Shown here piece by piece: positions 1-64,000 of a stretch of DNA of 64,000 bases. The number at the start of each line of letters is the position of its first letter. Position 1 is the stretch's first letter. Made by a program: the position numbers and the translations under genes. Where the stretch lies: positions 15,064-79,063 of the forward strand of contig QPMI01000236.1 of the NCBI GenBank assembly GCA_004431415.1. Reading direction: 5' to 3'. The DNA comes from Cyanophora paradoxa CCMP329. Its lineage: Eukaryota; Plantae; Glaucophyta. The notes under the pieces are model-generated. The model searched no databases. It was not told where the DNA came from and saw only the letters and a program-made list of their open reading frames with translations.

Positions 1-1
1 G

Positions 2-3335: not shown

Positions 3336-5025
3336 TCAGGCGAAGCCTCTTTCTCAAACCCAAAAACCGCCGACCGAAATTCCTTTTTTAACCTTTTTTT
3401 CCACTCGAGATCCCCCCTGCTAAATAATTTCCGTGTCACACTCCCTCGAAGCAGAATTATTAATTCTGCCTCGACACGGACGCGATTGATGGACATTACA
3501 CAGCTGCCCGAACCGCCACAGACCCCTCTAGATCCATTTTTAGCGTCCTGGCTCCCCTAAGACGACCGCTCCCCCGTGGGCGTCGCGCGAAAATCGAATT
3601 TCCCTCTGGATCAATTCCGGTACTTAACCCCCGACAAACACAGTCCGAGTCAGAAGGTGGGACCCGGTCCCGCCCGGTCCCGCGACGAAATCGCGCCAGG
3701 GACGCCCCAGAACGATACAGAATGACGCGCGAGGGCGAGCGCATCGCCGCAAGCTCGATTTCGGGCGCCCTCGATTCTCCAGTCCGAAGAATCGGCCGAA
3801 CATTTGATCCGGCCGGTCCCGCCCGGTCCCGCGACGCGCGCAATCGATGCGTACCGGCGCGCATAGACATAGCAGGGCCTGCGCACCCCCGAAATCCGCT
3901 TTCGGAGCCAGAGCAGCGCAGGAAGGCTCCCGACGGCAAAAAATCGATCCTGCACAGTCCCGGGCAACTTTCCGCGCGCCGACGCCGCGGCGCATGCGCG
4001 GATCGATAGCATAAGCATTTGAGATGTAGGAGAAGCCTTTTGCACGGTCTCTAAATGCGCCGGGCCACGAGGACCCAGCCGACCCCGAAAATTCGATCCT
4101 CTACAGACCTGAAGACCTGTTCTTGCGCCCTCGCATCCTCGCGCATGCGCATCGCTACAATATTCATTTCACATTTTATTGAAGCCTTCCACAAGCTTTG
4201 AAGACGCGGAAGAGCACGAGAACCCAGCCGACGGCAAAAAATCGATTCTGAACAGACCCGGACATCTTTCCGTGCGCCAACGCCGCGGCGCATGCGCGGA
4301 ACAATATGATAAGCATTTCAGATGTAGACAAAGCCTTCCGCACGCATTGCAGATGTGCCGGGCCGCGAGGACCCAGCCGACGCCGAAAATTCGATCCTGG
4401 ACGGACCTGCACAGCTTTCCGCGCGCCCTCGCATCCTCACGCGTGCGCATCCCTACACTAGTAATTTGAGATCTTTCTTAAGCTTTTCGCGAACTCTAAA
4501 GATGCGCATGAATCCAGCCGACCCCGAAATAAAAGATGAATCCAGCTGAATCGCGAACTCTAAAGATGCGCATAAAGATGCGACAGGGCGCGAGAATCCA
4601 GCCGACCCCGAAAATTCGATCCTGGCCAGGCCTGCAAAGCTTTCCGCGTGCCCTCGCCTCCGCAGCCCCGCACATCGATGCTATATGCATTCAAGATTCT
4701 GTTTAAGCGATTCGCAAGCTCTGTGCATGCGTCTGGCCTTGAGAATCTCGCCCCTCCCGGGCCTCCCTCTCAACAATATTATATAATTCATCTCCTCTCA
4801 ACTTGCTCCGGCATCCCTTTATTTCCTCAGTACATTAATATTCCTCTAGTTATATTCCTCTAGCCGGCCAGCGCTGGACAAGTACTGGCCGTCAGCCAGC
4901 CAGCTTCCGGATCCAGCCAGAAAGCTGTTCGCGATCGGCCAGGCCGCTGGCCAGTGCCCTATAGGCCTACTGTGACAGCCGCGAGGGCGTCCGCGAGGCT
5001 TCGCCGTACTTAGTGCTCCGCAGGA
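3336..5025 (+). mobile_element. Non-autonomous Helitron2/Helentron-like element, copy 1 (3' hairpin truncated)
   Basis: The 5' end TCAGGCGAAGCCTC contains an AGGC-GAA-GCCT hairpin. Its 11-bp inverse GAGGCTTCGCC lies at ~4995-5005, just before the terminal hairpin GTGCTCC-GCA-GGA[GCAC]. There are no conventional TIRs/TSD and no credible ORF. Confidence 0.65.
3930..4680 (+). repeat. ~150-bp diverged tandem repeat (two alternating monomer types) inside the Helentron-like element
   Basis: Anchor AAAA(T)TCGAT(C/T)CT recurs at ~3940, 4088, 4240, 4387 and 4612. The same array is present in copies 2 and 3. Confidence 0.8.
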
Positions 5026-5182
5026 ACCCAAAAACCGCCGACCGAAATTCCTTTTTTAACCTTTTTTTCCACTCCAGATCCCCCCTGCTAAATAATTCCC
5101 GTGTCACACTCCCTCGAGGCAGAATTATTAATTCTGCCTCGACACGGACGCGATTGATAGACATTACACGGCTGCCCGAACC
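5025..5182 (+). mobile_element. Short head-to-tail fragment of the same element (near-5' ~160 bp)
   Basis: Nearly identical to ~3357-3514. Contains the near-perfect palindrome TCGAGGCAGAATTA-T-TAATTCTGCCTCGA (5114-5142). Confidence 0.8.
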
Positions 5183-5183
5183 C

Positions 5184-6873
5184 CAAGATCTGTGCTCCTG
5201 CGGAGCACTAAGTACGGCGAAGCCTCGCGGACGCCCTCGCGGCTGTCACAGTAGGCCTAGCTATATATAGGGCACTGGGTGCCACTGGCCAGCGGGTGGC
5301 AGCGGCACGGCCGATCGCGAACAGCTGTCTGGCTGGCCAGCTGCAGCCCAACTAGTACTGGCCGGGCCCGGCCCAGTGCATGGGCCAGTCCAGCTAGCGC
5401 TGCATGGCCGGCCAGAGAGAAATATTAATGTACTGAGGAAATAAAGCGAATATATTATTAGGGAGTGGTTGGACTGGCTTTTAACTGGTGGAGCAGATTG
5501 AGAGGAGATTAATTATATAATTATATAATATTGTTCGGAGGGAGGCCGGGATCCCCGGAGGGGCAAGGTTCTCGCGGCCAGGCGCATGCACAGAGCTTGG
5601 GAATCGCTTAAACAGACCCTCGAATGCATATAGGCCGCCCGCAAAGACGTGCAGGCGTGGCGAGGATCGAATTTTTGCGTCGGCTGGGTTCTCGCGCCCT
5701 GTCGCGCCCACAGAGCTCGCGGAAAGCATTTAAAACATCTCAAATGAATATACTAGCGATTCTCGTGCGTGAGGATGCGAGGGCGCGCGGAAAGATGTGC
5801 AGGTCCGTCAAGGATCGAATTTTGAGGGTCGGCTGGGTCCTCGCGGCCCGGCACATCTGTAAAGCGTGCGGAACGCTTCATCTACATCTCAGATGCTTAT
5901 GCTATTGTTCCGCGCATGCGCCGCGGCGTGGGCGCGCGGAAAGATGTCCGGGTCCGTGCAGGATCGAATTTTTGCCGTCGACTGGGTTCTCGTGCTCTTT
6001 CGCGTCTTCGAAGCTTGTGGAAGGCTTTGATAAAATCCCAAATGAATATAGTAGCGATTCTCATGCGTGAGGATGCGACGGCGCGCGGAAAGACGTGCAG
6101 GTCCGTCCAGGATCGAATTTTCGGGTCGGCTGGGTCCTCGCGGCCCGGCGCATCTGTAAAGCGTGCGGAATGCTTCTTCTAGATCTTAAATGCTTATGCT
6201 ATTCTTCCGCGCATGCGCCGCGGCGTGGGCGCGCGGAAAGATGTCCGGGGCCGTGCAGGATCGAATTTTTGGCGTCGGGTACCTTCCTGCGCTCTTCCGG
6301 CTCCGAAAAGCGGATTTCGGGGGTGCGCAGGCGCTGCTATGTCTATGCGCGCTAGTACGCATCGATTGCGCGCGTCGCGGGACCGGCCGGAACCGGCCGG
6401 ATCAAATTTTCGGCCGACTCTTCGCACTGGAGCGTCGACGGCGCGCGAAATCGAGCTTGCGGCGATGCGCTCGCCCTCGCGCGTCATTCTGTATCGTTCT
6501 GGGGCGTCCCTGGCGCGATTTCGTCGCGGGACCGGGCGGGACCGGGTCCCACCTTCTGACTCGGACTGCGTTTGTCGGAGGTTAAGTACCGGAATTGATC
6601 CAGAGGGAAATTCGATATTCGCGGGACGCCCACGGGGGAGCGGTCGTCTTAGGGAAGCCAGGACGCTAAAAATGGATCTAGAGAGGTCTGTGGGGGTTAG
6701 GGTAGCTGAGTCATTAGCGGCAATCGCGTCCGTGTCGAGGCAGAATTAATAATTCTGCCTCGAGGGAGTGCGACACGGAAATTATTTAGCAGGGGGGATC
6801 TCGAGTGGAAAAAAAGGTTAAAAAAGGAATTTATATCGGCGGTTTTTGGGTTTGAGAAAGAGGCTTCGCCTGA
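5184..6873 (-). mobile_element. Helitron2/Helentron-like element, copy 2 (inverted, both termini present)
   Basis: Diverged reverse complement of copy 1. On the + strand it begins CAAGATCTGTGCTCCTGCGGAGCAC and ends GAGGCTTCGCCTGA. Confidence 0.7.
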
Positions 6874-8084
6874 CCCGGTCCCGCCCGGTCCCGCGACGAA
6901 ATCGCGCCAGGGACGCCCCAGAACGATACAGAATGACGCGCGAGGGCGAGCGCATCGCCGCAAACTCGATTTCGGGCGCCGTCGACGCTCCAGTGCGAAG
7001 AGTCGGCCGAAAATTTGATCCGGCCGGTTCCGGCCGGTCCCGCGACGCGCGCAATCCATGCGTACTGGCGCGCATAGACATAGCACGGCCTGCCCACCCC
7101 CGAAATCCACTTTTCGGAGGCCGAACAGTGCAGGAAGGCTCCCGGCAGCAAAAATTCGAACCTGCACGGTCCCGGGCACCTTTCCGCGCGCCCACGCCGC
7201 GGCGCATGCGCGGAACGATAGCATACGCATTTGAGATGTAGAAGAAGCCTTCCGCACGCTTTACAGATGCGCGGGGCCGCGGGGACCCAGCCCACCCCGA
7301 AAATTCGATCCTCTACAGACCTGCACATCTTTCCGCGCGCCCTCGCATCCTCGCGCATGCGCATCGCTACAATATTCATTTGAGATTTTATCAAAGCCTT
7401 CGACAAGCTTCGAACACGCCGAAGACCACGAGAACCCAGCCGACGGCAAAAATTCGATCCTGCACGGACCTGGACATCTTTCTGCGCGCCCACGCCGCGG
7501 CACATGCGCGGGACAATAGCATATGCATGTGAGATGTAGACAAAGCCTTCCGCATGCTTTACAGATGCGCCGGGCCGCGAGAACCCAGCCAACCCCGAAA
7601 GTTCGATCTTGCACGGACCTGCACAGCTTTCCGCACGCCCTCGCATGCTCACGCATGGGCATCGCTACGGTACTCAGCTCCACCCTTTAATTATTTCCCG
7701 TAGCTCTTTGAAGAGAATGGGGCTCAATCTAGATCGATCTGCTCCACCCTCTTTGAAGAGAATGGGGCTCAATCTAGATCGATCTGCTCCACCCTTTAGC
7801 GAAAGTTCGATAATTAAGAGCTCAAATGAATACTCTCATGGGGCTCAATCTAGATCGATCTGCTCCACCCTTTAATTATTTCCTCGCTCAGTACATCATG
7901 GCATTAATATTCCTCTAGCCGACCAGCGCTAGCTGGACTGGCCGTCAGCCAGCCAGCTTCTAGCCAGAAAGCTGTTCGCGATCGGCCAGGCCGCTGGCCA
8001 GTGCCCTATAGGCCTACTGTGACAGCCGCGAGGGCGTCCGCGAGGCTTCGCCGTACTTAGTGCTCCGCAGGAGCACGGATCTTG
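6872..8084 (+). mobile_element. Helitron2/Helentron-like element, copy 3 (5'-truncated, internally rearranged)
   Basis: Starts GACCCGGTCCCGCCCGG, matching 3661 of copy 1. Ends GAGGCTTCGCCGTACTTAGTGCTCCGCAGGAGCACGGATCTTG followed by TT. Confidence 0.7.
7677..7883 (+). repeat. 45-bp tandem duplication plus partial copies
   Basis: CTCTTTGAAGAGAATGGGGCTCAATCTAGATCGATCTGCTCCACC occurs at 7704-7748 and 7749-7793, with a partial copy at ~7838-7883. Confidence 0.85.
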
Positions 8085-8347
8085 TTAAATATTTATTTGA
8101 TTTAATCGGAAAAGAACATGATTTAATCGAATTTATTGATATAATTCCGATTAGATTCATTTAGGATTCAATTAAGATCAATCGAAGTTATTGATATAAT
8201 TCCGATTAACTACAATTAAGATACAATATCGATTAATCGAGTTTATCGATATAACATCGATTAAATTAATTGAAAATGCATTTACAAATATGAAAATTCA
8301 TGTGAAAATTCAAATAAATTAATCGATTTTATTGATATAACATCGAA

Positions 8348-8446
8348 TCACACATATGAATATTCATATTTTAATCCTGAGGCGGAACGCCGAGGGATTA
8401 AAATATGAATATTCATATGTGTGACAATGTCTCCGACATGGAGACA
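8348..8446. repeat. Perfect 30-bp inverted repeat capped by GGCG-GAA-CGCC, followed by a second 7-bp hairpin
   Basis: TCACACATATGAATATTCATATTTTAATCC (8348-8377) pairs with GGATTAAAATATGAATATTCATATGTGTGA (8395-8424). TGTCTCC-GACAT-GGAGACA lies at 8428-8446. Confidence 0.9.
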
Positions 8447-8749
8447 ATCCTGCGCGTATACGTACACAGAGTGGTTTAAAGGATGCAGGTGCGCATGCGT
8501 ACGTTAACGTGTTCGCAACAACGTTTTAACGCACCGGACTCCGCCCTGCGGATTCGGTCTGCGCCTTCACGGCGCCCCCGCCGGCATCCATATATATGGA
8601 TGTATTCACGCCGTGACGCTAGCTCTGCATTACGGCTCGTCAGGCATCGATATCGGTCGCGGGCGCGGTATTTATATGTATATATATATATCACGCTAGC
8701 TCGAGATATTGAAGAAGCTTAAGTGCACTTGCATATGCACATGTATATG

Positions 8750-9300
8750 TACACGTATCATAGTATACATACACACATGTATATACATGCACACGTACAA
8801 AATTAAGGCGCACCAGCGGCGGTGCTGCCGCAGTGCTGCTGGCAGTAGTCTGTACCGTACGTATACGATTGCGGGTGTTGCGGCGACCGTCGGACCGCGG
8901 GCGACCGCGGGCCGCGGCAGACGATCGATCACGAGCTCGCGATCGAAGACCGATATGATGGCGATAACGCACTGCAGCTGTTCACGCACTGCTCAGTTCA
9001 CGCAAAGTTACATGTTCACGCTAGTTCGAGCTCTAGATCTAAAAGAAGTTCACATGTTCCGTAGTACATATGCATGTACACTGTGACAGACACATTCACA
9101 CATATACACATGATCATGAACAAAAGCGCACCAGTGACGGTAGTGCTGCTGGTAGTATACGTACGCGTACGCGTACTCTGTACCGTACACGTACGATTGC
9201 GGCGGACGATCGCGCGACTCGGCCCCGCAGCGCTGGCGATCGCGAACTTCGGAACTCGAAGACCGATATCGATATCGCACTGTTCACGCGCTGCGCGTTC
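8750..9300 (+). repeat. Two diverged copies of a ~300-bp unit riddled with palindromic micro-insertions
   Basis: Shared anchors GCGCACCAG..GTGCTGCTGG..CTGTACCGTAC..TACGATTGCGG..TCGAAGACCGATAT..CTGTTCACGC at ~8808-8987 and ~9127-9288. Confidence 0.7.
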
Positions 9301-9456
9301 TCACTGAGTCATGATCAGCAGAGTACTAGTCAGCACGTGATTACTGCAGCTGCGTATGCTGCTACGGTATGCACTGCGGCACTGCGGCACCGCCGGGCCG
9401 ACTCAGTGACTCGGCGATGATCGCGCCGCGGGCAACTGGCAATGCATGCGCACTCG

Positions 9457-9795
9457 GACTCGCGATCGCGATCGCCGAGTCGGGACTCGGGACTCGACTC
9501 GGCGAGCTCGGGAGTCGGGAGTCGGGAGTCGGGACTCGGGAGTCGGGAGTCCCGGAGTCCGACGGTCGGGACTCGGGAGTCGCCGCCGGGCCGGAGTCGC
9601 CGAGTCGGACTCGGGACTCGGGAGTCGGGACTCGACGAGTCGGGACTCGGGAGTCGGGACTCCCGAGTCCCGAGTCCGGCCCGGCGGGAGCCGATCCGCG
9701 GCGGGACTAGTACTACTGGTAGACTAACAGTGGTAGTATTCCCGGAACCCGGGAGTCGACGTCAAAAGTCGGGACTCGGGAGTCGGGACTCGGGA
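9457..9795. repeat. Heptamer minisatellite of GACTCGG/GAGTCGG units
   Basis: Dozens of GGGACTC/GGGAGTC units, with an inverted stretch (TCCCGAGTCCCGAGTCC) at ~9661. Confidence 0.9.
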
Positions 9796-10248
9796 TATAT
9801 ATACGCAAGTATGTACTTGATAATGAATCTTGAAATTATCATAAATTGAACTTGAAATCCCACTGCAAGGCATGCACTAGCTAGCAATGAATTCGAATGA
9901 TTTTAGCGGATTGACCAAAGAATTACTTATTTGTAATTCGTTAATTAACAAAAGACAAGGTTCCGGTACCGGTAGCTCACCGGAGGGTCCGTAGCTGTAC
10001 TACGTACTACGTACGGACCGTCTACGGTACGCACTGCGGCATGATCGCCCGCGCGCGCAGGAAACTTTGAAAACCGAGCCTGAAACCGATCATCGGATGG
10101 CCGGGGCCATGGGCCGGCGATGGCAGACTTGCCAAGTTGGCGGTTTACTTACTAAAGTTAATTATATGTGGTCACCGGGTTAAATTATATTAATATCAAG
10201 TATCAGTTATTATAATTAACTGCTGTATCTAGCTAGCGCTATTGCTAG

Positions 10249-10709
10249 TAGGGCACTGGCCAGCGGCCCGGCCGAACAGCTGGCTGGCTGGTTTTGGACT
10301 TTTAGGCTGGCCCAGCCGCCCGATTTGTTGACCAGCCGGGCCAGCCTTTTTCGGCTTTATCGGGCGGCCAGCCGGTCGGCGACACTGGCTGGGGGGTCGG
10401 TTCCAGGCTAGGAGTGGGGCTTGAGGGGGTGGCTTGATAAGATCAACAGCTAATATTCTTAACTGTGCACAATAAAACAGTTACAAAATCGTTTTCAAGA
10501 CACCGATTTCATTTAAGAACGTGGGCTCTGCGGCTGGTCGGCTGGCCTGCTGGCCTGGCCAAGCTGTCGGCTCCTAGCTGGAGGCTGGCCGCCAGCTGGA
10601 CGGCCAAATTTTGGCTGGAAGCTGGCGGCCAGCCCCGGGCCGCTGGCAAGGCTTCGTCGGCTTGGGCTGGCCCGCTGGCCAGAGGGAGGGCAGGCTGGCC
10701 AGTGCCCTA
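10249..10709. mobile_element. Non-autonomous hAT-superfamily MITE (461 bp)
   Basis: 16-bp perfect TIRs TAGGGCACTGGCCAGC / GCTGGCCAGTGCCCTA and a perfect 8-bp target-site duplication ATTGCTAG (10241-10248 and 10710-10717). A TAGGG start with an 8-bp TSD is characteristic of hAT elements. Confidence 0.93.
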
Positions 10710-10756
10710 ATTGCTAGCGCTAGCTGAACTTCCGGAATTCGCCGCTTCAATTCGGT

Positions 10757-10803
10757 CAGATCTTCCAGATCTTCCAGATCTTCGTCAGATCTTCCAGATC
10801 TTC
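10757..10803 (+). repeat. 9-bp tandem repeat (CAGATCTTC)x5
   Basis: Read directly from the sequence, with one 2-bp interruption. Confidence 0.9.
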
Positions 10804-11139
10804 ATGATCAGCGTTAGCGCGAAATCGCCGCGAATTCGAAGCTGCGCGATCATCGGATCCGAATTGATATCGGATTGCGGCGCTCCCCCCCCCCACCCCT
10901 CCCCCCCCCCTCTCTTCCCCGGCCCGTATACGTATACGTATACGTATATATACGTACGCGTTGCAGCGAGCGCTTCCCCCTGCGCCGGCCGTGCACGTGG
11001 CGACGGCCCCGCGCGCGGTCCCCGCCGCCCGCCGCCGTGACCCCCGGGTCCGGCCGCCGGGCGGTCCCGGTTTTGTAGTACCGGTACCGGTGCTGCTAGC
11101 TGGCCCAGCGGCCCCCTCAGGGCCTCCCCTCCCCCCAAC

Positions 11140-11851
11140 GCGGTGGGGCAAGTCGCGTCGACGTCGCTCGTCGACGAGGCGGCCCCGCCCGCCGCGGCCG
11201 GCGCCGACGCGGCGGGCCATGCACAGGTCGGGCCAGCTGGCGCGGCGCTACGGCAGCGAGGTGCGCCGCCGCCCCGCCCGCCCCCGCCCCGCCCCGCCCG
11301 CCGGCGCCGACGCGGCGGGGCAGGTCGCGTCGCTCGTCGACGAGGCGGCCCCGCCCGCCGCCGCCCGCGCCGGCCTCCCCTCGAGCCCGCCCCGCGACCC
11401 CCGCGGCGGCGCAGCCGGCCCCGTCCCCGCCGCCCGCCGCCCCGACCCAGAGTTGCCCCGGGCAGCACTGGCGGCCGCCGCGCAGCTCCCGCCGTGGAGC
11501 GCCCCCGCGCCACCGGTGTCCCTCTCGAGCTCGGCGCCCCACACCGCCTCCTCCCCCTCCTCCGGATCCTCCTCTCCCTCCCCCACGGCCGCACCGGTGG
11601 TCCGCAGCGCGTCGAGCACTCACATCGATATCGCGGGCGCCGCGGGGGCGCAGGAGCCCCGCTCGCCGGGCGCTGGCGGTGCCGCCCCCGTGGCGGTGCG
11701 GATCCGGCCGGGCTCTCCCCCGGCCCGCCGAAGCCCCCGCGGCCAGGCCGGCGGCCTCCGAGGTCCCCGCGGCGGCGGCACCAGCCTCTTCCCCGTCACC
11801 ACCGCCCGCCGCCCCAGCCCCGGCGGTCACCCCGGCGAGAGAAGGGCTTGA
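11140..11851 (+). pseudogene. Possible decayed low-complexity coding remnant with an internal duplication
   Basis: Duplicated segment (GQVAS(TS)LVDEAAPPAAA) at ~11145-11200 and ~11318-11365. No recognisable domain, and the strand is uncertain. Confidence 0.25.
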
Positions 11852-13764: not shown

Positions 13765-13996
13765 CTTGCTGGGCGCCGCAGGTTGAAAGGGCCGACCGTG
13801 CTCGGCCCCGAGTCAGCGGCTGTGTTCTGTTTCCTTCTACCCCAGGAAGGCGGGGTACAGTCCCGAAAACACCTCTGCCGAAAACAGATCGGCCGCGCTC
13901 GGCTCGCACTCGCAGCAGCGGCATGAGCTTAGGACCGCAGTCGAGTTAGCCATCGGTCAGGCCTCGTAGCGAGGGCCTAGGGCCCAACCCAGAGCG

Positions 13997-16900
13997 ATGG
14001 CCACCCTCCGGACGACGAAGCGGACGGAGCGGACCGGCAGCATGGGCGAGCGGACCATCCTGAAGTTCCCTAGATATGTCAGCGGGGACGATGGCGTGGA
14101 GCCCAAGGTGCGCTGGAGCGGCCCGCTCGGCTATGTGGCAGCCGCGCTAGCTTCCGCACGCCTGCATGCGTGGAGCGGTGCCTCGTGCCTCGTAGCTCAT
14201 GCCCGTGCCGCATTGTCCGAGCAGAAGACCCCGAGCATGCTTCGGAAAGAGTTCGAGGCGTGCAAGAAGGGGACGCTGCCTTTCCCGGTGAAGAGCAAGC
14301 CGCCGAAGATCGTGGAGTTCCTCAACATGTCGGACTACACGCACCAGACGAACACGATCGTCCCCATCGACGAGCCCATCTTCCAGCCCTTCCCGCCGCA
14401 GGTCGTCTTCCAGGGCTACGAGCCTTTCAAGACCTACGAGGCGGTGCTGCACCTCCGCAACAACGACAACGTGCGCGCGCTCGCTCGCAGCTAAGCCCCG
14501 CCCCGCGCGCCTTCCGCCCCCTGAGGCCTGCCCCGCCCGCTCGCCCCCGCAGGTGGCGCGGCGCGTGAAGGTCCTCCCGATCGAGTCGCCGTACTTCAGC
14601 GTCACGCCGGGCAAGGAGGCGCTGAAGGGCGCCAAGGTGGCGTCGGGTATGGAGCTGACGTACAACATCAAGTTCCAGCCGGAGGAGCGCAAGGACTACG
14701 TCATCGACCTCGTGGTGGCCACGGAGCGCGAGAAGTTCCACGTGCCCGTCCGCGCCATCGGCTCCCGCGGTGCGCCACCTCCGCGCCGCGGCGCCGCTCG
14801 CGCGCTCTCTGGCTGACACCGCCGCCGCCCGCGCCCGCGCGCCCGCAGCATTCCTGGACTTCCCGGACGAGATCGTGTTCGACCAGGCGGTGGTCAAGAT
14901 GACGACGACGCGGACCGTGCTGATGCGGAACATCGGCGACCGGGACGCGCAGTTCAGCTTCGAGACGAGCGGGCCCTTCAAGGTGATGCCCATGGAGGGG
15001 TACGTGGACGTGGGCGAGGCGGCCCAGGTGACGCTCTCCTTCACGCCGGAGAGCGCGATCGACTACACGGGCGAGGTCCGCCTCGCCTTCGGGGAGGGCC
15101 AGGTCGTCTACAGCGCCCTGCGCGGCTCGGGCGGCGAGGTCAACGTGCGCCTCGACAAGACCGAGCTCACGATGGAGCCGACGTACACCGGCCTCTCCTC
15201 GCGGCGCACCATCAAGATCTACAACAGCTCGGACATCCCCATCCACTACGAGTGGCGCGCGCTCGCCACGGCGGCGGCCGAGCAGCGGGAGCGCGCGGCG
15301 CGGCAGATGGAGCTGACGAGGGCCGAGAACGAAGAGACGCGGGCGCTGCAGGCGACGGCGACGGCGGCGCTGAGCGCGGCGGCGGCGCGCACGGGCGGGC
15401 TGGGCGGGGACGACGAGGGGAGCGAGGGGGAGGAGGGGGAGGGCGGCGGGGCGCGGCGGGGGATGCTGGAGGTGACGCGGCGGTACGAGCGGGCGCGGGG
15501 CGAGGTGGACCACGACCGCATGCTCTTCTACCACGAGGCCTTCTCCATCGAGCCCGTCGAGGGGGACCTCTGGGGCCACTCCGAGGTCCAGGTGCGGCGG
15601 CCGGCGCTGCGCGGGAGTTCGTCCTCCTCGGCCGGCCCCACGCTGAGCGAGCCTTGCAGGTGACGATCACGTTCTCGCCGCTGGCGGCGGCGCGCTTCAA
15701 CACGGCGGCGTACCTCGAGGTCACGGGCCGGCAGACGCGCCTCCCCCTCGACCTCAAGGGCGAGGGCGTCGGGCCCCGCGCCCGCTTCTCCTACGACGTC
15801 GTCCGCCCCGCCCCCACCCGCCCCGCCCCGCGCGCCTTTCCTCGGCGCTGACGGGCCGGCCGGCCCCCCAGCTGGACCTCGGGGACGTCTTCCTGAACAG
15901 CGTGCACCAGTACGAGGTCTCCATCGAGAACCAGGGCAACATCCAGGTCCGCTTTTCCCCTTGCCCCGCCCCGCCCCGCTTCCCTCTCCTCCGCTCCGCT
16001 CCGCTCCGGTTCGAGGCCCGTTTGCCTCCTCCCTCCCTCCAGGTGCGGTACCAGCTGCGGCCGCCGGCGTCGGTCTTCGGGCAGAAGTTCCACTTCACGC
16101 CGAGCGCCGGCGTCCTGGGCGTCGGCGAGTCCCAGACCCTCCAGGTGCTCCCTATGCTACGCCCCGCTACGCTCAGCTATGCTTCGCGCCTTCTGAACGG
16201 CCCCGCCCCGCCCCGGCTCAGGTGACGTTCGCGTCGAACGTGCTGGGGGACTTCGCGGAGCGCTTCTCCTTCCACGTCGCCTTCGCGAACGAGGACCTGC
16301 ACGTCGACTTCAAGGGGCGCGTCGTCGGGCCCACCTTTAACTTCGACGCCGAGGAGCTCGACTTCGGCACCGTCAGGTCCGCCCGCTGGCTTGCTTGCTT
16401 GCGGCGCCGCCTTTCTGACGTCTTTGTTGCTCGCAGCTACGCCTTTTTGACGACGAAGACGCTCTCGCTGTACAACACGTCGGAGATCCCGATGAAGTTC
16501 TCGCTGCGGGTGCCGGGGGACGGCCGCGCGGCGGGGGCGCCCAACGGCCGCGAGTTCGAGATCGTGCCGAGCTCGGGGACGGTGCTGCCCCACGGGAAGC
16601 AGAAAGTGCAGGTGGACTTTGTGCCCGTGCAGGCCCGGCCCTACGACCGGTCCCTGGTGGTGGACGTGGAGGGCGTGGGGCAGGACCTGCTCGCGCTGCC
16701 CATGCGCGCCCGCTGCCTCGTCCCCAAGATCTCCATCTCGGCCGACGAGGTCCAGTACGGCGACTGCTTCCTCCGCTACCCCTACCCCAAGGTCGTCGAG
16801 CTCGTCAACGAGTCCAAGCTCCCCGCCAAGTACGAGGTGCGCGCCGGCGGGCGGGCGGGCGGGCGGGCGGGCGGGCGGGCGGGCCGGCCAGCTAGCTACC

Positions 16901-19900
16901 TAGCCCCCTAAGCTAGCCCGGCCCGGCTAGGCCCGATCGGGCCGCGTGCGTGCGCCCCGACTGACGCGCCGGCCGCCGCCGCCGCCGCCCCCGCAGGTGC
17001 TGGCGCAGGACGAGGGCTCGAAGTGCATCGCGACGCACGAGGCGGACAAGCCCAAGGGCGTCATCCCCGCGCTCTCCTCGTGCATCGTGGCCCTCACGCT
17101 CACCCCGGAGCGCCTGGGGCCCATCTCCCTCCCCGTCTACTTCAAGGTGGCCGGCTCGGAGGGCCCGCCCCTCTCCACCACCCTCTCCTGCAACTGCGTC
17201 GGCCCGACCGTCACCCTCGACACCGCCAGCCTCGACTGGGGCTCCGTCGCCGTCCTCCAGCCCTGGGAGCGCACCCTCACGCTCCACAACCCCTCGCTCA
17301 TCGCGGCCGAGTACAAGGCCTTCTTCAAGCGCGCCTCGGTCTTCTCGCTGGAGAAGCACCAGGGGCGCATCCCGCCGGGCGGCAGCGAGGCGCTGCGCAT
17401 CACGGCGAACCTGGACGAGACGCAGAAGTTCGACGAGGAGCTCCGCGTCATGATCACCGACGCCGACGACAAGGTCGTGCGGCTGCACGCCAAGGGCACG
17501 GGGACGACCGTCTGGTGCGCCCACCCGATGGACACGATCGACTTCGGCAACCTCTTCACCAACCGCGGGCGCGTCTCCTGTCTCATCTATCTTATCTTAG
17601 AAGCTGACGGCTGGGGCAGGACGGTGAAGGAGATCGTGCTGGAGAACCGCGGGCGGAGGACGCAGACGCTGGTCTGGTCCTACAAGGACCCCAAGAAGAA
17701 CCGGAAGCGGCCGGCGGACGCGCCGCCCGAGGAGCCCGAGGTCTTCCAGTGGCAGCCGCAGCGCGTCAACGTCGAGCCCAAGACCGCCGTGGTGAGCGGG
17801 GCCGGGCCGGGCCGGGGCTTAGCGGGCGGGGGGCTCACGCCGGGGCGCGCGCAGATCTTCGAGGTGCGGGCGGCGTGCGCGCGGAACGGGACGGCTTCGG
17901 AGCAGTTCGTGTGCACGACGACGGTCGGCAAGACGCAGAAAGTGGTCTTCGAGAGCACGCTGGTCGCCAACTTCGTCGACCCGCTCCTCGAGTGGTCGGC
18001 CCCGGGGCTCACCTTCACGTACGACTACGAGCCGGGCGTGCCCATCCGGCCCCAGACGATGCCCGTCACGCTCAAGAACGTCTCGCTGCTGCCGCTCGAG
18101 TTCCACCTGCGGACGCAGGTGCCCTTCTACGTCGAGGGCGGCGAGCACTCGCTGCAGCCGGGCGAGACGTGCACCGTCGCCGTGCAGTTCGACCCGGGCT
18201 TCCGTAACGACAAGCAGAGCGCGCGCATCACGAACAAGCTGAACGTCATCTACCGGGAGCACCCGCAGCGGGACAGCCTGCCGCTCGTCGGGGAGATCAA
18301 CTTCCCGAACCTCACGTTCGAGTCCAACAAGATCGACTTCGGGTGCGTCCTCAACGAGACGGCCAAGCGCGTCGTTGTCGAGTTCTCCAACAAGAGCAAG
18401 ATCGAGGTGCTTATCATTATTGTTTTACCGTCTAGCTTTCTCTTCTTGTTCTGATTGCTTTGTGTTTGCAGGCCTCGTACCAGTGGTTCTTCATCGAGGA
18501 CGAGGAGCCGGCGAAGCACGACGACACGCTCTCGGTCAACGCGGCGCCGCTGGGGCCGGCCGGCTCCGCCACCAACCCGCCCAGCGGCGCCGCCTCGGCG
18601 CGCACCAACGTCCCCGAGGGGACGCCGGCGCCGGTGCCGGCGGCGCCGTCCAACACGCGCGCGGCGCGGGCGGCGGCCGCCGCCGCCGCAGCGGCGGCGG
18701 CGCTCCCGCCCGTGCCGGTGAACCAAGTCTTCGACATCCGGCCCATCCGGAGCGTGTTGAAGCCGGGCGAGTCGGAGCGGGTCGAGTTCGTCTTCTACGG
18801 CCACACGAACCGCAAGTTCAAGGGCTCCGCCGTCTGCGACGTCTCCGGCGGGCCCGAGTACGAGTTCCAGGTCCGCGAACGAACGCGCAAGAAAATGAGA
18901 TTCATTCCCTTGGATCTAATCTAATCCAATCCAACCCACCCGAACAGGTCTCGGCGGAGGCGAGCCAGGTGCAGTACAAGCTGGACACGCGGTCCATCGC
19001 GTTCGAGCCGCAGCAGTACGACAAGCAGGAGGAGCGCGAGATCGTGCTCTCCAACACGGGCCGCGTCGGCTTCGCGTACACGATCTCGACGGCGGCCGTG
19101 CAGCGCCCGGGGGCCCTCGAGATCTCCCCGATGTCGGGGCGCGTCAACGCCCACGAGAAGGCCAAGCTGGTCGTCAAGTTCATGCCCCGCGTCCCCGACC
19201 GCGCCGTCGAGAAGTTCCACATCCAGGTCCGCCTTTCGTTCGTTTCCACATATCTAATCCAGTGCCTTTCGTCTTAGCTCCCGCCTCCCACCTCAGGTCG
19301 CGCACTTCGACCCGGAGGAGATCACGGTGACGGGCGAGGGCCTCTTCCCATGCCTCCTCCTCACGCTCCCGCGGCTGGAGGACGAGCGCCACAAGGCGGC
19401 CGTCGAGGCGGTCCTCGCGAACCCGCCCCGCCTGCCCCCGCCCGGCACGCCCTACTACGGCCAGCCCCCGCCCCCCTCGCCCGGGCCCGGCGGCGCCCCG
19501 GCCCCGGCCGGCGCCGCCGCCGCGGAGGCGGCGCTGGAGAGCATTCCGGAGGGCAACGCCTTCGAGGCGACGACCGGCTCGCTGCCGCTGTCGGCGGGGC
19601 CGGCCTCCATGGGCGCCTCGGGCAAGGGGCCCCCGGGCGGGGGCAGCACGGGCCGCCGCGCCGGCGCCTCGACGCCGGGGAGCAACCGGAGCGGGCCGCG
19701 CTTCTCGGCGGCGCCGATCAAGCTGCCGAACCTGGGGCAGGGGCCCCTGGACGCCCTCGGGCTCGCCGAGGTCGACCGCCGGGTACGCGCGAAGTCTTAG
19801 CCCGGGGCCTCATCGGGAAGCGTTCCTCTGAGCGTTCCTCCGCGCAGATCCTGCTGCAGAACGTGACCGAGTTCCTGGCGGAGGAGCAGCGGCAGCCGCC

Positions 19901-32270: not shown

Positions 32271-32337
32271 CGATTTGCACGCGTACCCGGGGACGTCGGC
32301 AGAACTGCAGCCGACGCGGGCTAGGAGCACGCCGGCG
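32271..32337. promoter_or_regulatory. Putative compact bidirectional promoter
   Basis: Only 67 bp separate the divergent ATGs at 32270 (-) and 32338 (+). The gap holds an inverted repeat, CGTCGGC (32294-32300) / GCCGACG (32310-32316). Confidence 0.5.
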
Positions 32338-41077: not shown

Positions 41078-41534
41078 TGCGACGGCGTGCGCCCTCCACG
41101 AATGAAGTGCCACTAGCTATAGCGTCTCTAGAACTCCTTAAGCTTCGAATTCGAATTCTCCTCTTTATAGCTCCTCTCGAGCTTTGTTTTCTTGTATCTG
41201 CTTGCATGCATATATATATATATGCACATGCATGCGCAGCCGGCATATATATGGGGGCCGATCGCGAGCTCGAGGAGCTCGAGCTAGAGGCGGTCGCGAA
41301 GAAATTTAATTTTCGCGCGAAGAGTACTAGCTATAGCTGGGATGGCGATCGAGAGGAGAGGAGCTCCTGAGGGCAATAATTAATTCGCGGGGATGGCAAT
41401 TTGCGAAAACCCGCAAAACCTGCGCCAGTGACCTGCAGCTGGTGCGCGCTCCGCGCTTCCCCCGCGCGCCTGTGCATTATTTGATTGCGCTCATATGCGT
41501 ATTTCGCAATCGTAGCATTGATCTGCCGCGAAAT

Positions 41535-44464: not shown

Positions 44465-45108
44465 TATTTGCAATTGACGGAGAGCTGTACTTAAATTCGC
44501 GATTGACGTCGGCATTGTCGAGCCTCGGAGTTTACAGCTGCGACGGATGCTAGCGCTGCGCATGCAATCTTGAATAATTTCAATGACTAGTCCTGGGGGC
44601 GCGCCGGCGGGCCGCGCGGTTCCGGGGGCCGGAGCCGAACGCGAAAATATTCAATGGGATCGGAATTTAATATTACTCCTCAGGGTATATATGCTAGCTA
44701 CAGATATATCGTCTCTAGATCTCCTTCGAATTCTCCTTTTTATAGCTCTTTTCGAGCTTTGTTTTATTCTCTCTTCGCTTGCATATATATCCGCATATGC
44801 ATGCGCAGCCGGTATATATGGGGGCCGGCGCCGAGCTCGACGCGTATACGAGGCGGTCGCGAGGAAACTTGATTTTCGCGCGGAAGGGATATATCGATAT
44901 CGAGATCTAGATCTAGATCTCGAGGGATATCGATGGCGATCGAGAGCTCGAGGAGGCCGGGTCGGCGGTCAATTGAAGGGAGCTCCACATATATAGCTAT
45001 ATATATATAGGAAGGGCTGAGGACAATCCGCGAAAATACCCGCGAAATCCGGCGACCTGTGCGCTCATCCGCACATTTCGCGCTCGTAGCATCAATCTGC
45101 CGCGAAAT

Positions 45109-48100
45109 ATGGAGCGAAGACGATCCAAGCGGCTTCGTAACGAAGCTCCGACGTGCGCGCCGCGATGCGCGATTTCGCGATTGCTGTAGACGTCGACGTC
45201 GACGTCGGCACTGATTTGCGGCCCGCACGATCAGAGACGCCGCGGGCGGTGCGCCGGCGCCCGAGCTCTCGGCGCTCGAAGCGCTGCACCCGGACGCGCT
45301 GGAGGCGGTGCTGCTGCGCCTCGGGCTCGTCGAGGCGTGGCGGAGCCTGCGGCCGGTCAGCAGGGCGATGCGCGCGGCGGTCGATCGCGTGGCAGCGTGG
45401 CCGGCGCTGCGGCTCAAGGCGGACACTGTCGAAAAGCTCCAGCTGGCAGCAGCGCGCTTCGCTCGCGATCAGCCGCGGAAGAGGAGGCGCGCACGTGAGC
45501 AAGCGCCTCGCATCACGCTGGCCGCCGGCGCCGCGATTGAATTGATCACCGGGATCGATGACGACGGCAAGCATACGCGTCCAGTGATCGTGAGCGAAAA
45601 ACGGATTGACGCCATCTCGGCCCTGTTTTCCGCCTGCTCGGCGTCCAGCGGCGGTCTCGGCAGCCTCAAGGTTTCTCTGCAGCTGGCGCTCGACCTGTGC
45701 AGAAGCTACGATCGCGAGCTGGAGGAATCGGGAGAGAAAAGCATCGAAAAAGCTATTTTGGCCGCGCTCGACCTGCTGAGCCGGCCGGAAGCGGAGGGCG
45801 GCAGCCGCCACACGCTCAGGAGCGTCAGCGTCCAGCTCAAAATGGGCATGCATATGCACATTCTTGCATCTCAGGCTTCGGAGGGACTTGTGCAGCTGCT
45901 GTCCCGCTTCCCGCGCCTCGAGCGGCTGGAGCTGCCCTACCTCCTGGACAGCGGAGCTTCGAATTCGAACGCAGCCGTCCCTGCCGCGCTGCCCACGCTG
46001 CGTTCCGCGGTCGTTTGCCTTCGCGACGGCGCGGCCCTCGCCCGCCTCGCTTTTCATCCGGCGCTTGAGGAGCTCGATGTCTCGGTCTTAGAGCCCGATT
46101 GGGTTGACCGCGGACCGAGGAGCGGCTTTGATGTTTTCGCGGCGGGCCCCGCCGCCGCACGGCTGCGAAAGCTGAAGATAACTTTGTGCGGACTTCTTCG
46201 AATTCTTGGATATTTTAGATATAATCGCTGTATGCATCTGCTGACCATGCAGCGCGCACAGCACCAGCGGATATATATATCGGTCTGAAGCTGAGCCGGG
46301 GTTCGATATCGCGGACCTGCCCTCTCTGCGCCACCTCACCTCTCTCGAGGCGCTGGAGCTCAACTTCGACTTGGATTGTGATGTTCGCCGGCAGGTCAGT
46401 CCGGCTTGGATCTTCTCGGCTATAGCTAGTCCGCCACCAAGAGAAAGCCAAGGCCTTAGGGGACTGAGAACAGCCTCTAGCAAGAAGAAGCTTTGAAGCC
46501 GCTCAGATCTGAATTAATTTCTAATCGAACGTTGTAGGCTGAGCTTGACAGTTTCACACAGACCTTCGATGATCAAGGATTTGTTCGAACATACGAATCG
46601 GACGAATCGATATCGGGAGAATCGGAAGAAGATTCCGAGGAGTCAGTGCTGCTGGGCCCGGCGTGGCCGTTCTCTCTGCTAGACGAGCACCTCGCGGGCC
46701 TGCAGCGGCTGCGCACGCTCGACCTCCACATAGAATTCGATACTAAAGAAGTCGACGCCGAACAAATCCGGGCTGTAGCCTGCCCGCTCCCCGCTCTCTG
46801 CGACCGCAACTTCGCCAACTTCGACTGCCGCCTCAGTATCGGCAACCGTGCGCGATTCGCTTTGCAAATCAAATCCTCCATTATCGCGACCTCGGAATGC
46901 CCACGGAAGGCCCAACGCGTATGAGATCCCTGCTGCCAGCTGTGAAGCTCGACGGGCTGCGCACAGATAGACATTCATGATCATCGCCTCTCATTAATCC
47001 TCCATACGACCTATAGATGTTCACCCGCCAGTTTTGATTTCCTCGCAGCATTCCTAGAATTGGACGCCGAATCCAAGCTGGAGGTGGATTCGGCGCTCGC
47101 AGAACTTCTTCGCGCGGCGGGGCCCTCCCTGATAGCTCTCGGGGGAGAAATCGCGCGCGGAGAAGCGTTCTCCGCCCTCGCCGCCTGCCCGCGGCTGCAG
47201 GAACTGCACCTGCTCGACAAGCTGGGGGCCTATGTCCGGCTCGACTCGCACTGGCGGCCTGAGCCGCCGGACTGGCTCGCGCGGGGCGACCACGAGACCC
47301 TCGCAGGGCTGCGCCGGCTCCGCATTCTCGACCTCGATCTCTTTTACGCGGGGCGCCTCGGCCCGGCACACCTGCGCTGCCTCGCCCGCTCCGCCACAGA
47401 GCTCTGCGCGCACTCCCTCACCGAACTTCGCCTCAAGATTTGTGCGTGCAAGCTGCTTTCTGAATTTCTATCCAATCTTGTAAATGTGTTTAGATAAAGA
47501 TTTGAGATTTGTGCGTGCAAGCTGCTTTCTGAATTTCTATCCAATCTTGTAAATGTGTAAATGTAAATGTGCCGCCCAACCTGCCTCCACCCAATAGCCC
47601 TCACTCTCGCTCTCGCTCGCCGCGGCCGTGCAGTCACGGAGGACGAGGCGGGCGTGGACGCGGCGCTCGCGGAGCTGCTCCGGGCGGCGGCGCCGGCGCT
47701 CGTCGAGCTCGGCGTTGGCGCGGCGGTCCTCAAGGGGGAGGCCGCGGCCGCGCTCGCCGCCTGCCCGCGCCTGGAACGGTTGGAGCTGGTCGAGCCCGGG
47801 GTCCCCGACACGCGCTGGGAGCCCGTCCCCATCGCCGAGGCGGTGGATGCCGTCATCGCCTGCCCCTGCGTCAAAGTGATCTCGGGCTTCATAGTGCCCT
47901 TCAGCAGCGAGCGGGAGGCGGCGGAGCTGCTCGGGCCTCTGTCACGCCTCGCTGCCTCTCGCGCCTTCGACTGCCGCAGCTGCTCCTTCACACTCCGGCC
48001 CCGGGGGAGGCTGTGCTGCAAATCGAAACTGAAGGTCAAGGCCGTCAAGCTCGCGAAAAAGCTCGTCCACACCGCCTTCCCGAAGGCAGCGGTCAAGACC

Positions 48101-48139
48101 CCTGATGGGACGACGTATCGAGGAGGACACAGGTTCTAG
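45109..48139 (+). CDS. F-box / LRR-like protein, paralog 2 (tandem duplicate)
   Basis: Same exon layout and a nearly identical F-box exon. The upstream region (~44690-45100) is homologous to ~41115-41530. Confidence 0.75.
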
Positions 48140-48250
48140 GTAGCTCGACATCAATATAAATATTGCCACGAGAAAACGTTAACATCTCATGATCAGCAAG
48201 TACTAGTAGTTTTCCTTCCGCGAACGTTGCCACAAGCTCGAGCGAGTTTT

Positions 48251-60800: not shown

Positions 60801-62768
60801 ACCGCGAGAGCGGCTGCGCGGCGCCGGCGGCTTCAGAACAGAGAACAAAGAGCGCTCTCGTTGGCGTCTTCGCCGGCGTAGATTTAGATCAGACGGTCCA
60901 CCTAAATAGAGCCTCCAGGCAGGGGTACGGGCGCGGACCTTGTGGGGGGCGGAGACGAGGCGGTGGACGGGGGTACGGCGCGCTCCCCGCGGGGCGATGG
61001 CCTCCGCCACGCAGAGCGACTCCAGCAGCGCGAACGCCGTGCTGCGCCGCGGGGGCGGGGGCGGGGGGCGTCAGCTGCAGGCCGGCCGCGGCACGGCGCG
61101 CGGGCCTAGATCTCTAGATCTAGATCTAATGGATCTCTAGGGACCGCCTCTCTAGATGGATCTCATGGATCTCTAGATCTCTCGGACCGCCGCGATCTCC
61201 AGATCTAGATCTCGTGGAGAGACATGCACGGGTACGACGCACTCGGAGAGGACGATCTCGTCGTCCTTGCTCGCCTGCATCGCCTCGCACGCTGCCCCGA
61301 ACGAAGTTTCACGAAAGGAGGGGGGGGGGGGGGGGGGGGGGGGTAGTAGGGGGGACGAGCCTTGGCGGATCAGATCCCCCGTGAACACGGCCTGGGCGGC
61401 GCCCTCGGAGCCGCCGCCCTGTAGCATGTACGCCTGCATCTCGCCAGAGCCTGCGGGGGGTACGCGTCGGTCGGACATCGGATCTGGAAGCGGGCGCGCT
61501 CGTTCTGATTCGGCGATCCGCACCTATCGATGTGTGCGCGGTGAGCCGGAACCCGTTGCGCGTAAAAGAGATCGATCGGATGTCGAGTGCGGCCTGAGGG
61601 GAGTGGGGGGAGCCGGGGGGGGGGGGGGGGGTAGAGCGTCAGCGGGGAAGGAGCCAGGGGTACGGCGGCACGGGCGGGTGCGGACGTCGAGGGCCAGTCG
61701 GGTCTGCGAGTAGGACAGTCAGGGGGGTACGAGGAGACGGGCGAGCCGCTAAGAAAGGGGGGTACCGTGGCGCGGAGGTCGATGGCTTCGGAGACGGGTA
61801 TGAAGGCTACGACGGCGTCGCCGGCGAAGAAGAGAACTTCCGCCCGGCGGGAGTGGAGGCCTGCGGCACGGCGGGGGTCAGCGGTGGGAAGGGGGGAAAG
61901 GGGGGTGAGTGGAGGGGAGGAGGTGGGGGGGAGGGGTGGGGCGGGGAGGGGAGGGGGAGGGTACGCACGCCGGACGAGCTGCAGGAAGTAATCCTGCGGC
62001 GAATGGGGGGGGGGGGGAGGGGGGGGGGGGGGGCGGGTTAGGCCGCTGGGAGGCGCCGGACGCACAAAGCAGACGCACGTTGAGGGAAGAGGTGAGCTGC
62101 GGGGTACCCGGGGAGGGCCGGCCGAAGGTAGTGAGCGGCATAGCGGGCGGGCGTGGGAAGGAGAAGGGGGGAGGGGGGGGGGGGGAGGAAGGAAGGGGGA
62201 GGGGGGTACGGACCTTTTCGCTGGCGTTGGCCCCCTCCGAGCGCGTCAGGGCGCGCGCCAGGGCGGAGAAGCCCGTCACGTCGATGAAGATCTGGAGCGG
62301 GGCCCGGGGGTACAGCTTAGCCGGGATCCCGCCGCGGCGGTGCGAGCGCCGGCGCGCGCTCTCTCATTCCGGGCGCACGCATGAGCCGAGGAGACGGGCC
62401 ACAGTGGCCTTCTCGCCGGCCTGGAGGCCCTCGACGAGGGGCGAGGGCCGGCCCTCCACGGCGAAGAGGCCGGAGGGGACGTAGGGCAGGACCAGGTCGA
62501 TGGCGCTCGCGCTCCACTCGCCCTCCCCGCCGCCGCCGCCGCCGCCGCCCGGCGTCAGGGCCTCCGCGCCGAGCCCGGAAGCGACCGACGAGGGGAGGGA
62601 AGGCGGGCCCGGCAGGCCCGGGCCGGGGCCCACGAACACGTAGGACCCCATGCGCGGGCGGGACTCCGGCCCGCGGCCGCCGCGCCCGCTGCCGCCCGGG
62701 GCGGGCGACGAGCTCGCCGGCGCCGGCACCGTCCCCTGCGTCGATTGCTGGCGGAGGCCATCCGTCAT
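48899..62768 (-). CDS. ADCY10-like protein: two class III cyclase domains, a STAND/AAA ATPase and a helical (TPR-like) C-terminus; many exons
   Basis: C1: LPYVP, IFIDVTGFSAL, FFAGDAVV. C2: CNKIFVDDKG, FGLPLFSHEDDAERA, GRIFCGSLG..RREYAWIGDAVIKAARIM, KAKGF. P-loop GDAGYGKT, Walker B ILIDDAQFLDSLSW, ILSRIDQLP, LKLAAVIGTRF and YNSM..RRDAHRRAA. The start (MTDGLRQ) and stop are inferred. Confidence 0.85.
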
Positions 62769-63380
62769 TGCTGCGCGCTCGGCGGGCTGGGAAGACCCCA
62801 AGTGCGGGCTCCGCCAACAGAAAGCCTCAGCAGCGCGTTGCTAACTTCAGCGCCGCGCCAGCTCTCGGTCGCAATGTGCGCCGCCGGGCGCGGTCGCGCG
62901 CATGTTCGGACGCAGAGAGCTAGTCGAACAAGCCTGGATCCGGACGGATCCCTGAAAAAGCCGTTGTCTGCGGCTGCGCCCGAGCGGCCCGGCGGTGAGG
63001 GCTTTGCGCGCCGCTGCCGCGCCCAGTGCTTCGCCGCACTGGCAGCCGCTGAGCGCCTGCCGGCCGCGCGGGCGGGCACGGCGCGCGCACCGGTCCGCGC
63101 GCGCTAGCTATACAGCGCTTCCAGGCCTTCAGCGCTGTCGCCGGCCGAGGCTCGGAGCTGCTCTAGTTCCCCGGGTCCCCTATAGCTAGCTATCCGGGAC
63201 CGATATCCGATGATCGCGCGCAGCCGCTGCAGCGTGCCTAGCTGCTGCGGCGCTGCATGCGCCGCGATGCGCGCTGCGATTCCTGCGAATGCAGCAGAAG
63301 CTTAAGGCGTTGCTGATCGCGGCGCGACTTACAACTAACGGCCAATCAACTTGAAGAATTTCGACTCAGCTACAGGGGTA

Positions 63381-64000
63381 TAGGGCTGAAACAACGGGGG
63401 ACGACATTCGAAACGGGTACTGGGTAATTCTGTTTTTGCAAAAATATGCGCACGTGCAATGACAGTGACGACGTGCATGCGCGCGCCCGCGCGCGCGCGC
63501 ACGTGCACTATAGCTACGTACGCGTATACTACTATAATACTAGTACCGTAGTACCGGCCGCCGGTACTACCATAGTACCGTAGTACGGTAGCTGCAGCCT
63601 GCAGCCTGCAGGCTGCAGGGCTCGGCCCGGCGGAGCTCGAGGCTCGGCGGACTGCAGCGGCAGCACTACTAGTAGTGTTGCTAGTAGTGCAGCGTCGACG
63701 TCGGACTCCGGGAGCCGGCGGGAGGGCGCGCGCCAGCGCACGGGCAGCTGCAGCGGCCGTGGGCCGCGGCCGGGCCCGGCCCGCGGCCGCCGGCGCGTCG
63801 CCGCAGCGGGTATACGTACAGGCGCATGCGCAGCGGCACCGCGCGCAGACATCAAGAGGAGGAGCGCAGCTGCAGCCGCGCAAGCTTAAGCCGCCGACAC
63901 CCGCGCGCTCCGATATCGATCAGAAAGCGGCGCGCGCGGCGTGCCTCGATCACGTACGTATACGCGTGTTCCTCTCCGCTGACCTCAGCGTGTTCCTCTC
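63381..64000 (+). mobile_element. Possible left end of another hAT element, continuing beyond the window
   Basis: TAGGGCTGAAA at 63381-63391 resembles the Ac-type TIR (T/C)AGGGATGAAA and is followed by AACGG motifs. The partner TIR is not visible, and downstream DNA is saturated with micro-palindromes. Confidence 0.35.

Follow-up and report, generated by a model that had tools for sequence, protein, structure and literature searches.

The window analysed here is a 64-kb stretch of contig QPMI01000236.1 from the glaucophyte Cyanophora paradoxa CCMP329. It is GC-rich and intron-rich and holds a Polinton-like end, a nested repeat cluster, a HYDIN gene, two F-box-like paralog blocks, and several other genes, in a genome reported to measure about 100 Mb with 67.6% GC and a mean intron length of 86 bp (PMC6704402). 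Our subject is a short inverted triplication in which a unit X of two or three bases is followed by its reverse complement and by a second copy of itself, X-rc(X)-X. An earlier note, made from the letters of this DNA alone, had proposed that such motifs arise by insertion and are a leading source of new sequence here. It cited five pairs of homologous sites and a series of motifs, all of which are present in the window as described.

The pattern proved to be real. The window was partitioned using a codon model and HYDIN homology, and the remaining 30,348 bp of non-coding DNA contain 224 three-base triplications compared to 18.9 ± 4.2 in 30 local dinucleotide shuffles with dinucleotide runs excluded, a 12-fold excess (all counts come from this one 64-kb window). 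Removing every case with a full 6-bp tandem copy leaves 163 versus 16.2, and counting separate loci gives 189 versus ~19, an excess of ~170. Across the whole window there are 334, where local Markov simulations of order 1-3 give 57-91. Two-base units are enriched 1.5-1.9-fold in non-coding DNA (245 versus 131, or 192 versus 128 ± 10 outside the three-base motifs), and four-base units show no clear excess (5 versus 2.2). Two control arrangements were counted in the same DNA: mirror copies, X-reverse(X)-X, occur 24 times versus 10.5, and complement copies 61 times versus 9.9, an excess that probably stems for the most part from (AGATCT)n-type arrays read out of frame. Almost every sequence takes part, with 31 of 32 three-mer classes represented window-wide and 29 of the 30 countable classes among the 189 loci, and bias among them is weak (AGA/TCT high; AGG, AAT and CAA low). 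Non-coding runs of at least three AT units are raised (27 versus 11.1) but (CG)n runs are not (101 versus 100), so a one-base version of the process is not evident.

Other eukaryotes gave no such signal in the loci compared. From a panel of 74 HYDIN-bearing loci, the 49 with at least 500 bp of non-coding DNA (146.5 kb) showed no excess of three-base triplications (61 versus 56.8), although all are lower in GC (0.24-0.50) and several probably belong to one species and so are not independent. Two of these loci are individually high, L034 with 5 versus 0.8 and L037 with 6 versus 1.3. A pattern search of metagenome contigs returned 0 matches to a repeat of the window.

Triplications are unevenly distributed, with 11.0 per kb between genes and 3.6 per kb in non-coding DNA inside gene bodies. 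The HYDIN gene (homology at 14249..30774, plus strand; gene about 13990-30786) and the Polinton-like stretch (1..2091, plus strand; an integrase open reading frame matching rve, PF00665, at E=2e-4, below Pfam's cut-off) served as controls. An exact look-up of the integrase frame in the sequence collection returned no match. In HYDIN exons 21 were found versus 9.2, mostly in GCC-GGC-GCC-type codon runs, where the non-coding rate would give 84. HYDIN introns contain 0 versus 10.1 expected, and the Polinton-like stretch 0 versus 15.7. These ~30 introns are short, and many consist of (CCCCG)n or similar slippage repeats that are triplication-free. The nested repeat cluster holds 16 versus 30.6 expected. 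The picture of triplications saturating introns and old repeats is thus only partly correct.

Comparison of related copies showed that these motifs account for many indels. Sixteen paralog pairs were aligned with explicit operations for triplication, mirror and complement copies, and exact three-base triplications made up 14 of 25 six-base gaps, 13 of them distinct (2 of the 13 can also be read as tandem copies and 2 lie in poorly aligned DNA). Two-base triplications made up 9 of 15 four-base gaps (8 distinct, 2 ambiguous as tandem). Mirror copies explained 0 six-base and 2 four-base gaps, and complement copies 1 and 3. In nine short non-coding pairs there were 17 events in 164 substitutions, about one per ten, and in three long repeat pairs there were none in 211 substitutions. 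For indels of 4-6 bases in non-coding paralog pairs, triplication as a leading indel class is borne out. The same comparison contradicts the idea that the process erodes transposons in the manner of repeat-induced point mutation in fungi: the long repeat pairs lack events, the repeat cluster is depleted, and the analogy fails because scar density is highest between genes rather than in repeats.

The change polarises as a gain at four sites for which three copies could be compared. These are TCC-GGA-TCC at 4906..4914 (plus strand), CT-AG-CT plus TATA at 5254..5270 (plus strand) and CA-TG-CA at 5398..5406 (minus strand), each in one of three copies, and CAT-c-ATG-g-CAT at 7894..7904 (plus strand), an 8-base insertion that the other two copies (~4833 and ~5430) do not have. 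The site at 5254 had been cited as a simple two-base pair; the pair is present, and contigs from three sequencing runs (X1, X9 and X10) cover the long form with 0 other letters, but the gap is 8 bases long and adjoins a hAT-like element end. Contigs of sequencing runs, rather than raw reads, were compared with positions 3301-8440, and among the best 12 of 119 indel rows is a repeat-family variant, AGC-GCT-AGC, which has one substitution and six additional bases relative to the window; two runs show it at 7020, and the other two at 6397, the inverted copy.

The remaining paired sites vary in what they say about direction. CGA-TCG-CGA at 4929..4937 (minus strand) is long in three close copies and short in a distant element at ~10271, so the pair is genuine and its direction of change cannot be polarised. 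CT-AG-CT at 7926..7938 (plus strand) has a short counterpart at 4871, as cited; the long form is found in two of three window copies and recurs, apart from one substitution, in the sole contig over that position in three of four runs, and this is probably a loss at 4871 rather than a gain at 7926. GTC-GAC-GTC at 11157..11165 (plus strand) corresponds to a single GTC near 11326. CTT-AAG-CTT at 41137..41158 (plus strand) is paired as claimed, with the complication of a second six-base gap beside it that is also readable as a tandem copy. At 41259..41267 (plus strand) one paralog has CGA-TCG-CGA where the other, in an alignment read by eye, has GCC-GGC-GCC at 44824; with different triplications at one spot, their shared ancestor probably had neither. 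GAT-ATC-GAT and GAG-CTC-GAG at 44926..44952 (plus strand) are each single in the paralog near 41341-41358, and GCC-GGC-GCC at 45253..45261 (plus strand) adds two residues in frame to an F-box-like paralog. Aligning the paralogs thus upheld insertion at several sites, with 7926 as the case that looks like loss.

The geometry of the events is fixed: the inverted length equals the re-copied length, the loop is zero, and the unit is 2-3 bases. Zero-spacer triplications dominate (224 versus 18), most other spacer combinations are at most 2-3 times chance, and the only others above 3-fold are one base on each side (63 versus 19) and a single one-base spacer (37 versus 12). The palindromic bases are centred on the joint without a loop, as they are in published CACTA empty sites. 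In the class with one base on each side the spacers are C then G: X-C-rc(X)-G-X occurs 39 times versus 2.4, and the G-then-C order 4 times versus 2.1. This effect is confined to three-base units (0 for four-base units) and is strand-symmetric, since the order X, C, inverted copy is found on either strand. The flanks are not the source of the C and G: they match in 20 of 39 cases, about the chance level.

Junction borders offered few further clues. In the main class, 111 borders form self-complementary dinucleotides versus 112 expected from the local background, so there is no microhomology excess; the proposal that the process feeds on its own palindromes is unsupported for single events. Palindromic borders at first seemed to be preferred (none in 69 of 189, compared to ~50% for random insertion), but the preference disappeared against the local background. 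A slight site bias was seen (C before X in 38% versus 29%; a C|T border 39 times versus 20.6), and the scars showed no pattern of lesion-specific starts (CpG, ApT). Spacer classes with a 7-base period are up 2-4-fold, partly from 7-bp arrays. One such array is a 7-bp satellite at 9455-9800, with mixed GGGACTC/GGGAGTC units in both orientations and several C…G motifs inside, and others, consisting of CTGCAG plus one C or G, lie at 54343-54365 and 63592-63615. A 20-base gap at 5278-5299 can be parsed into a pair of 6-base duplications with a 4-base spacer apiece; one or both are inverted copies with a loop, a geometry unlike that of the main class.

We propose, with a probability of roughly 0.6, that the six-base insertions are repair scars of an excised cut-and-paste transposon with a 3-bp target duplication, probably of the CACTA/CMC type. 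The route that we infer from the products, their geometry and distribution, and the polarity at several sites would begin with an insertion that duplicates X, so that both flanks end in X. On excision the transposase would close each flank into a hairpin, and a host nuclease would open each hairpin about three bases past its tip, leaving a 3' tail of rc(X) on the left flank and one of X on the right. Because each tail is necessarily the complement of the other, the two would anneal, and fill-in would give X-rc(X)-X. A first cut placed one base inside an element that starts with C would put C in each hairpin tip and yield X-C-rc(X)-G-X. The two-base form would follow if one side lost a base, and later slippage may have lengthened some scars into (AGATCT)n-type arrays. 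The model covers the equal inverted and re-copied lengths, the stop at three bases, the absence of priming homology, and the C on both strands. The size cut-off at three is the CACTA target length, the inserted unit matches a variable 3-bp target with two-base forms allowed, and the strand-symmetric C…G class points to a two-ended hairpin intermediate. The window also holds DNA-transposon-like elements, including a hAT-like miniature inverted-repeat transposable element (MITE) with an 8-bp duplication.

Published CACTA footprints come close to this pattern. These elements end in CACT(A/G) and have a 3-bp target of variable sequence (PMC4423477). Carnation dTac1, inserted with a TGG duplication, left the empty sites TGCATGG and TGGCCGG, both two-base triplications (PMC3859356), and Arabidopsis Pack-CACTA1a, with AAG, left AA-TT-AA-G or A-AG-CT-AG in 8 of 26 non-wild-type clones, the 34 clones in all coming from one locus and so not being independent (PMC6379663). 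En/Spm-type (CMC) footprints, as far as these reports describe them, share with the window the variable 3-bp target, the joint-centred palindrome without a loop and the two-base X-rc(X)-X products, and their C…G element ends may have a counterpart here in the left-over C and G. Unlike them, the window is dominated by the three-base form, has an 8-base form that retains C and G, and carries ~6 fixed scars per kb of non-coding DNA from an element that was not found. The hAT (Ac/Ds, Hermes), Transib, MULE and RAG reactions are documented to form hairpins on the flank, leave P-nucleotides and join ends through microhomology (PMC5873905, PMC5499845), and they resemble the proposed route in the flank hairpin, its opening by the host and the microhomology-based joining. 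Footprints of hAT elements differ in having an 8-bp target and a palindrome whose centre is the complement of the flank's last base, a shape not enriched here. EnSpm elements are reported to be active in Chlamydomonas lines, and methylated DNA transposons are reported in Cyanophora (PMC9977147, PMC12344493).

Other transposon geometries were tried and set aside. The minimal hAT footprint for an 8-bp target occurs once versus 1.9 expected, and both full 8-bp matches lie inside one 7-bp array. A 5-bp C-NNN-G target with hAT geometry fits both flanks in 6 of 39 members of the C…G class and so does not serve as a general account of it, and the Harbinger target TAA/TTA is not enriched (TAA class 3 versus 3.3).

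Several observations weigh against the excision model. No transposase match was found in 107 open reading frames of at least 67 residues, mostly from non-coding regions, and the 64-kb window held neither a pair of filled and empty sites nor, within 6 kb, a C…G-ended element with a 3-bp duplication that looked convincingly intact; scans for terminal inverted repeats plus duplications gave only chance matches or matches inside long repeats. The three-base form that dominates here accounts for 0 of the 28 plant CACTA footprints given in the text available of two reports (PMC3859356, PMC6379663). Plain 3-bp duplications are scarce in the paralog pairs (2). The left-over C…G is order-specific (39 versus 2.4), as CACTA ends would leave it, yet clustered: 31 of 37 loci fall in two hot regions, 8400..11200, which is hot for both classes, and 62900..64000, and the 6 versus 1.9 outside them equal the maximum of 40 shuffles and are not significant. 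Mixed forms with C at one end only show no selective enrichment (C 43 versus 18, G 37 versus 16.5), so each class would require a family or a cutting mode of its own. The genome paper, in the part available, describes little repeat expansion (PMC6704402), rice excisions are described as mostly leaving ragged deletions and filler, with 8 of 94 perfect, and flank hairpins for CACTA elements themselves appear to have been deduced from footprints rather than from biochemistry.

A tentative alternative dispenses with a resident transposon and supposes that an enzyme route of this lineage's own writes palindromic insertions of 4, 6 and 8 bases as a main indel class. Such a route might be a strand switch on short flaps, or the work, in open chromatin, of a domesticated transposase or nuclease that forms hairpins.

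The flap version, taken by itself, seems doubtful. During Okazaki-fragment processing or long-patch repair, a polymerase would displace 2-3 bases (X), switch strands onto this short 5' flap and copy it to its end (rc(X)), and the product would be ligated to the flap. This would give the zero loop and the equal lengths in one step without a transposon, consistent with the lack of a matching transposon in the window, and loss of FEN1/Rad27 in yeast is reported to yield inverted triplications and palindrome expansions (PMC13334657; PMC5677150 for expansion in rad27 lines; related events in PMC13493898). A one-strand event cannot put C after X on both strands, however, and replication errors should be even in neutral DNA, which the empty HYDIN introns and long repeat pairs contradict. 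The small inverted triplications of rad27/FEN1 yeast share the direct/inverted/direct layout and can revert precisely, but they are ~50 times larger (median 148/160/148 bp, with a 30-bp spacer, 6-bp junction homology and duplications from 7 bp), rare and unstable, and the text available describes none in wild-type yeast (PMC13334657). Their hallmarks are missing from the window scars, which have zero spacer, no excess of border homology and units of 2-3 bases.

Short template switches bear both on the flap route and on the mechanism first proposed for this window, a double template switch or snap-back repair of polymerase-theta type. In the four-point description the event is formally the '4 before 1' switch with points 1=2 and 3=4, and this model is mechanism-agnostic according to its authors (PMC7954356). 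Löytynoja and Goldman describe the class with point 4 before point 1 as unseen in copied fragments of at least 14 bp (PMC5453318), and Walker and colleagues later found it in apes (PMC7954356); the ape switches, as reported there, are rare, variable and studied at longer copied lengths, as opposed to the one fixed 2-3 base geometry here. The original proposal was right that the events are genuine insertions whose middle copy is inverted. A polymerase-theta-like or snap-back process is not supported as the preferred account, given the fixed geometry, the dispensability of priming microhomology and the strand symmetry of the C…G class, and we consider it less likely than transposon excision footprints.

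It is rather improbable that the scars come from breaks made in open chromatin by a non-transposon nuclease that cuts with a 3-base stagger, with the ends filled and hairpinned, or copied across by an end-joining polymerase that sometimes adds an untemplated C. A two-ended break would fit the symmetric C…G class and the bias toward DNA between genes, and the slight site bias points the same way. However, we know of no broad-specificity nuclease with a 3-base stagger: the stagger of Top2 is 4 and that of Spo11/TopoVI is 2. Polymerase-theta insertions vary in geometry and usually come with deletions, unlike the fixed geometry here, and this explanation needs more separate assumptions than the footprint model.

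We regard it as highly unlikely that palindromic hexamers are common for another reason, such as selection or methylation, with 6-bp slippage and decay producing the 9-mers and the short paired forms being deletions. Hexamer palindromes are indeed enriched (1288 versus 757), the site at 7926 resembles loss, and a tandem reading is possible for 2 of 13 paired three-base and 2 of 8 two-base events. Period-6 runs of 3, 4 and 5 matches in the palindromic register nevertheless number 69, 67 and 27 versus 7.7, 5.5 and 2.9 (9-12-fold), other registers reach only 1.2-2.1 times chance, several sites polarise as gains, and 31 of 32 three-mer classes take part. Since the enrichment sits in the palindromic register, slippage as a cause is largely ruled out; the check that the earlier note had named for it leaves the three-base triplications far above expectation. 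An assembly or library artefact has almost no chance of being right: the comparison was made on contigs rather than raw reads and the run that best matches the window may be its source sample, but 92-95% of 1013 sampled window words recur in 18 public DNA runs dating from 2012 to 2024 even though 13.8% of the 31-mers between 38001 and 48000 cross a triplication, and the motifs avoid exons and differ between paralogs. No RNA run was listed among those that match the window.

With respect to novelty, the earlier note knew of no description of the pattern. The basic shape is already in print in the reports cited here (PMC7954356, PMC13334657, PMC3859356, PMC6379663), and we found no report of a genome-wide three-base triplication signature or of the C…G form in the open-access literature, subscription and older papers lying outside the search. 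A genome-scale parallel exists in Ustilago maydis, whose 10-bp repeats have been interpreted as possible footprints of transposons and are also genome-wide, small and located between genes; they differ in size and lineage, and the text consulted describes no inverted-triplication structure for them (PMC4081816). The triplications are most likely scars of a known kind that are unusually uniform and very dense here.

Several repeats and elements in the window are of further interest. The nested high-copy cluster at 3337-8084 (~3300-8100) contains 149-bp sub-repeats and ends CAAGATCY…RGATCTTG at 5184 and 8084, with C…G termini; its element is a candidate scar maker. Summed contig depth over the cluster reaches tens of thousands, and loose ends suggest an empty site at 3336. 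The hAT-like MITE at 10249-10709 has inverted ends TAGGGCACTGGCCAGC and an exact 8-bp duplication ATTGCTAG, and similar ends occur at ~4961 and ~5262. At 63664-63689, in the second hot region, 26 bp reading CACTA…TAGTG lie between CAG copies and could represent either an element that has collapsed or a simple palindrome, a weak lead. A short fold-back at 8348-8424 has CACAC…GTGTG ends without a matching duplication.

Among the other genes, the tandem F-box/leucine-rich-repeat-like paralog blocks occupy 41640-44460 and 45215-48140 (atlas score 0.94; no Pfam match), and a homology search with an F-box-like paralog found no match among 7997 candidates. A gene for an FAD (flavin adenine dinucleotide)-binding oxidoreductase (PF01565) lies at 32338-35860, and its protein begins MAFASA…, where the MAF start is presumably like that of a glaucophyte plastid transit peptide.

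In practice, triplication motifs will mislead searches for promoter motifs and palindromes in this genome. If a route of the lineage's own writes them, promoters would be continually seeded with new hexamer palindromes, and the product with C in the tip would mark a cutting chemistry offset by one base from that of hAT enzymes. If they are excision footprints, the ~170 scars above chance in 30 kb would, if extrapolated to a genome of 100 Mb, imply more than 100,000, and transposon traffic would be a leading source of small insertions near genes, including in-frame additions of two residues. The stereotyped product and the retained C would then be testable clues to CACTA-type cutting chemistry, and the scars would form a fossil map of transposon landings in which jumps could be counted after the elements themselves are gone.

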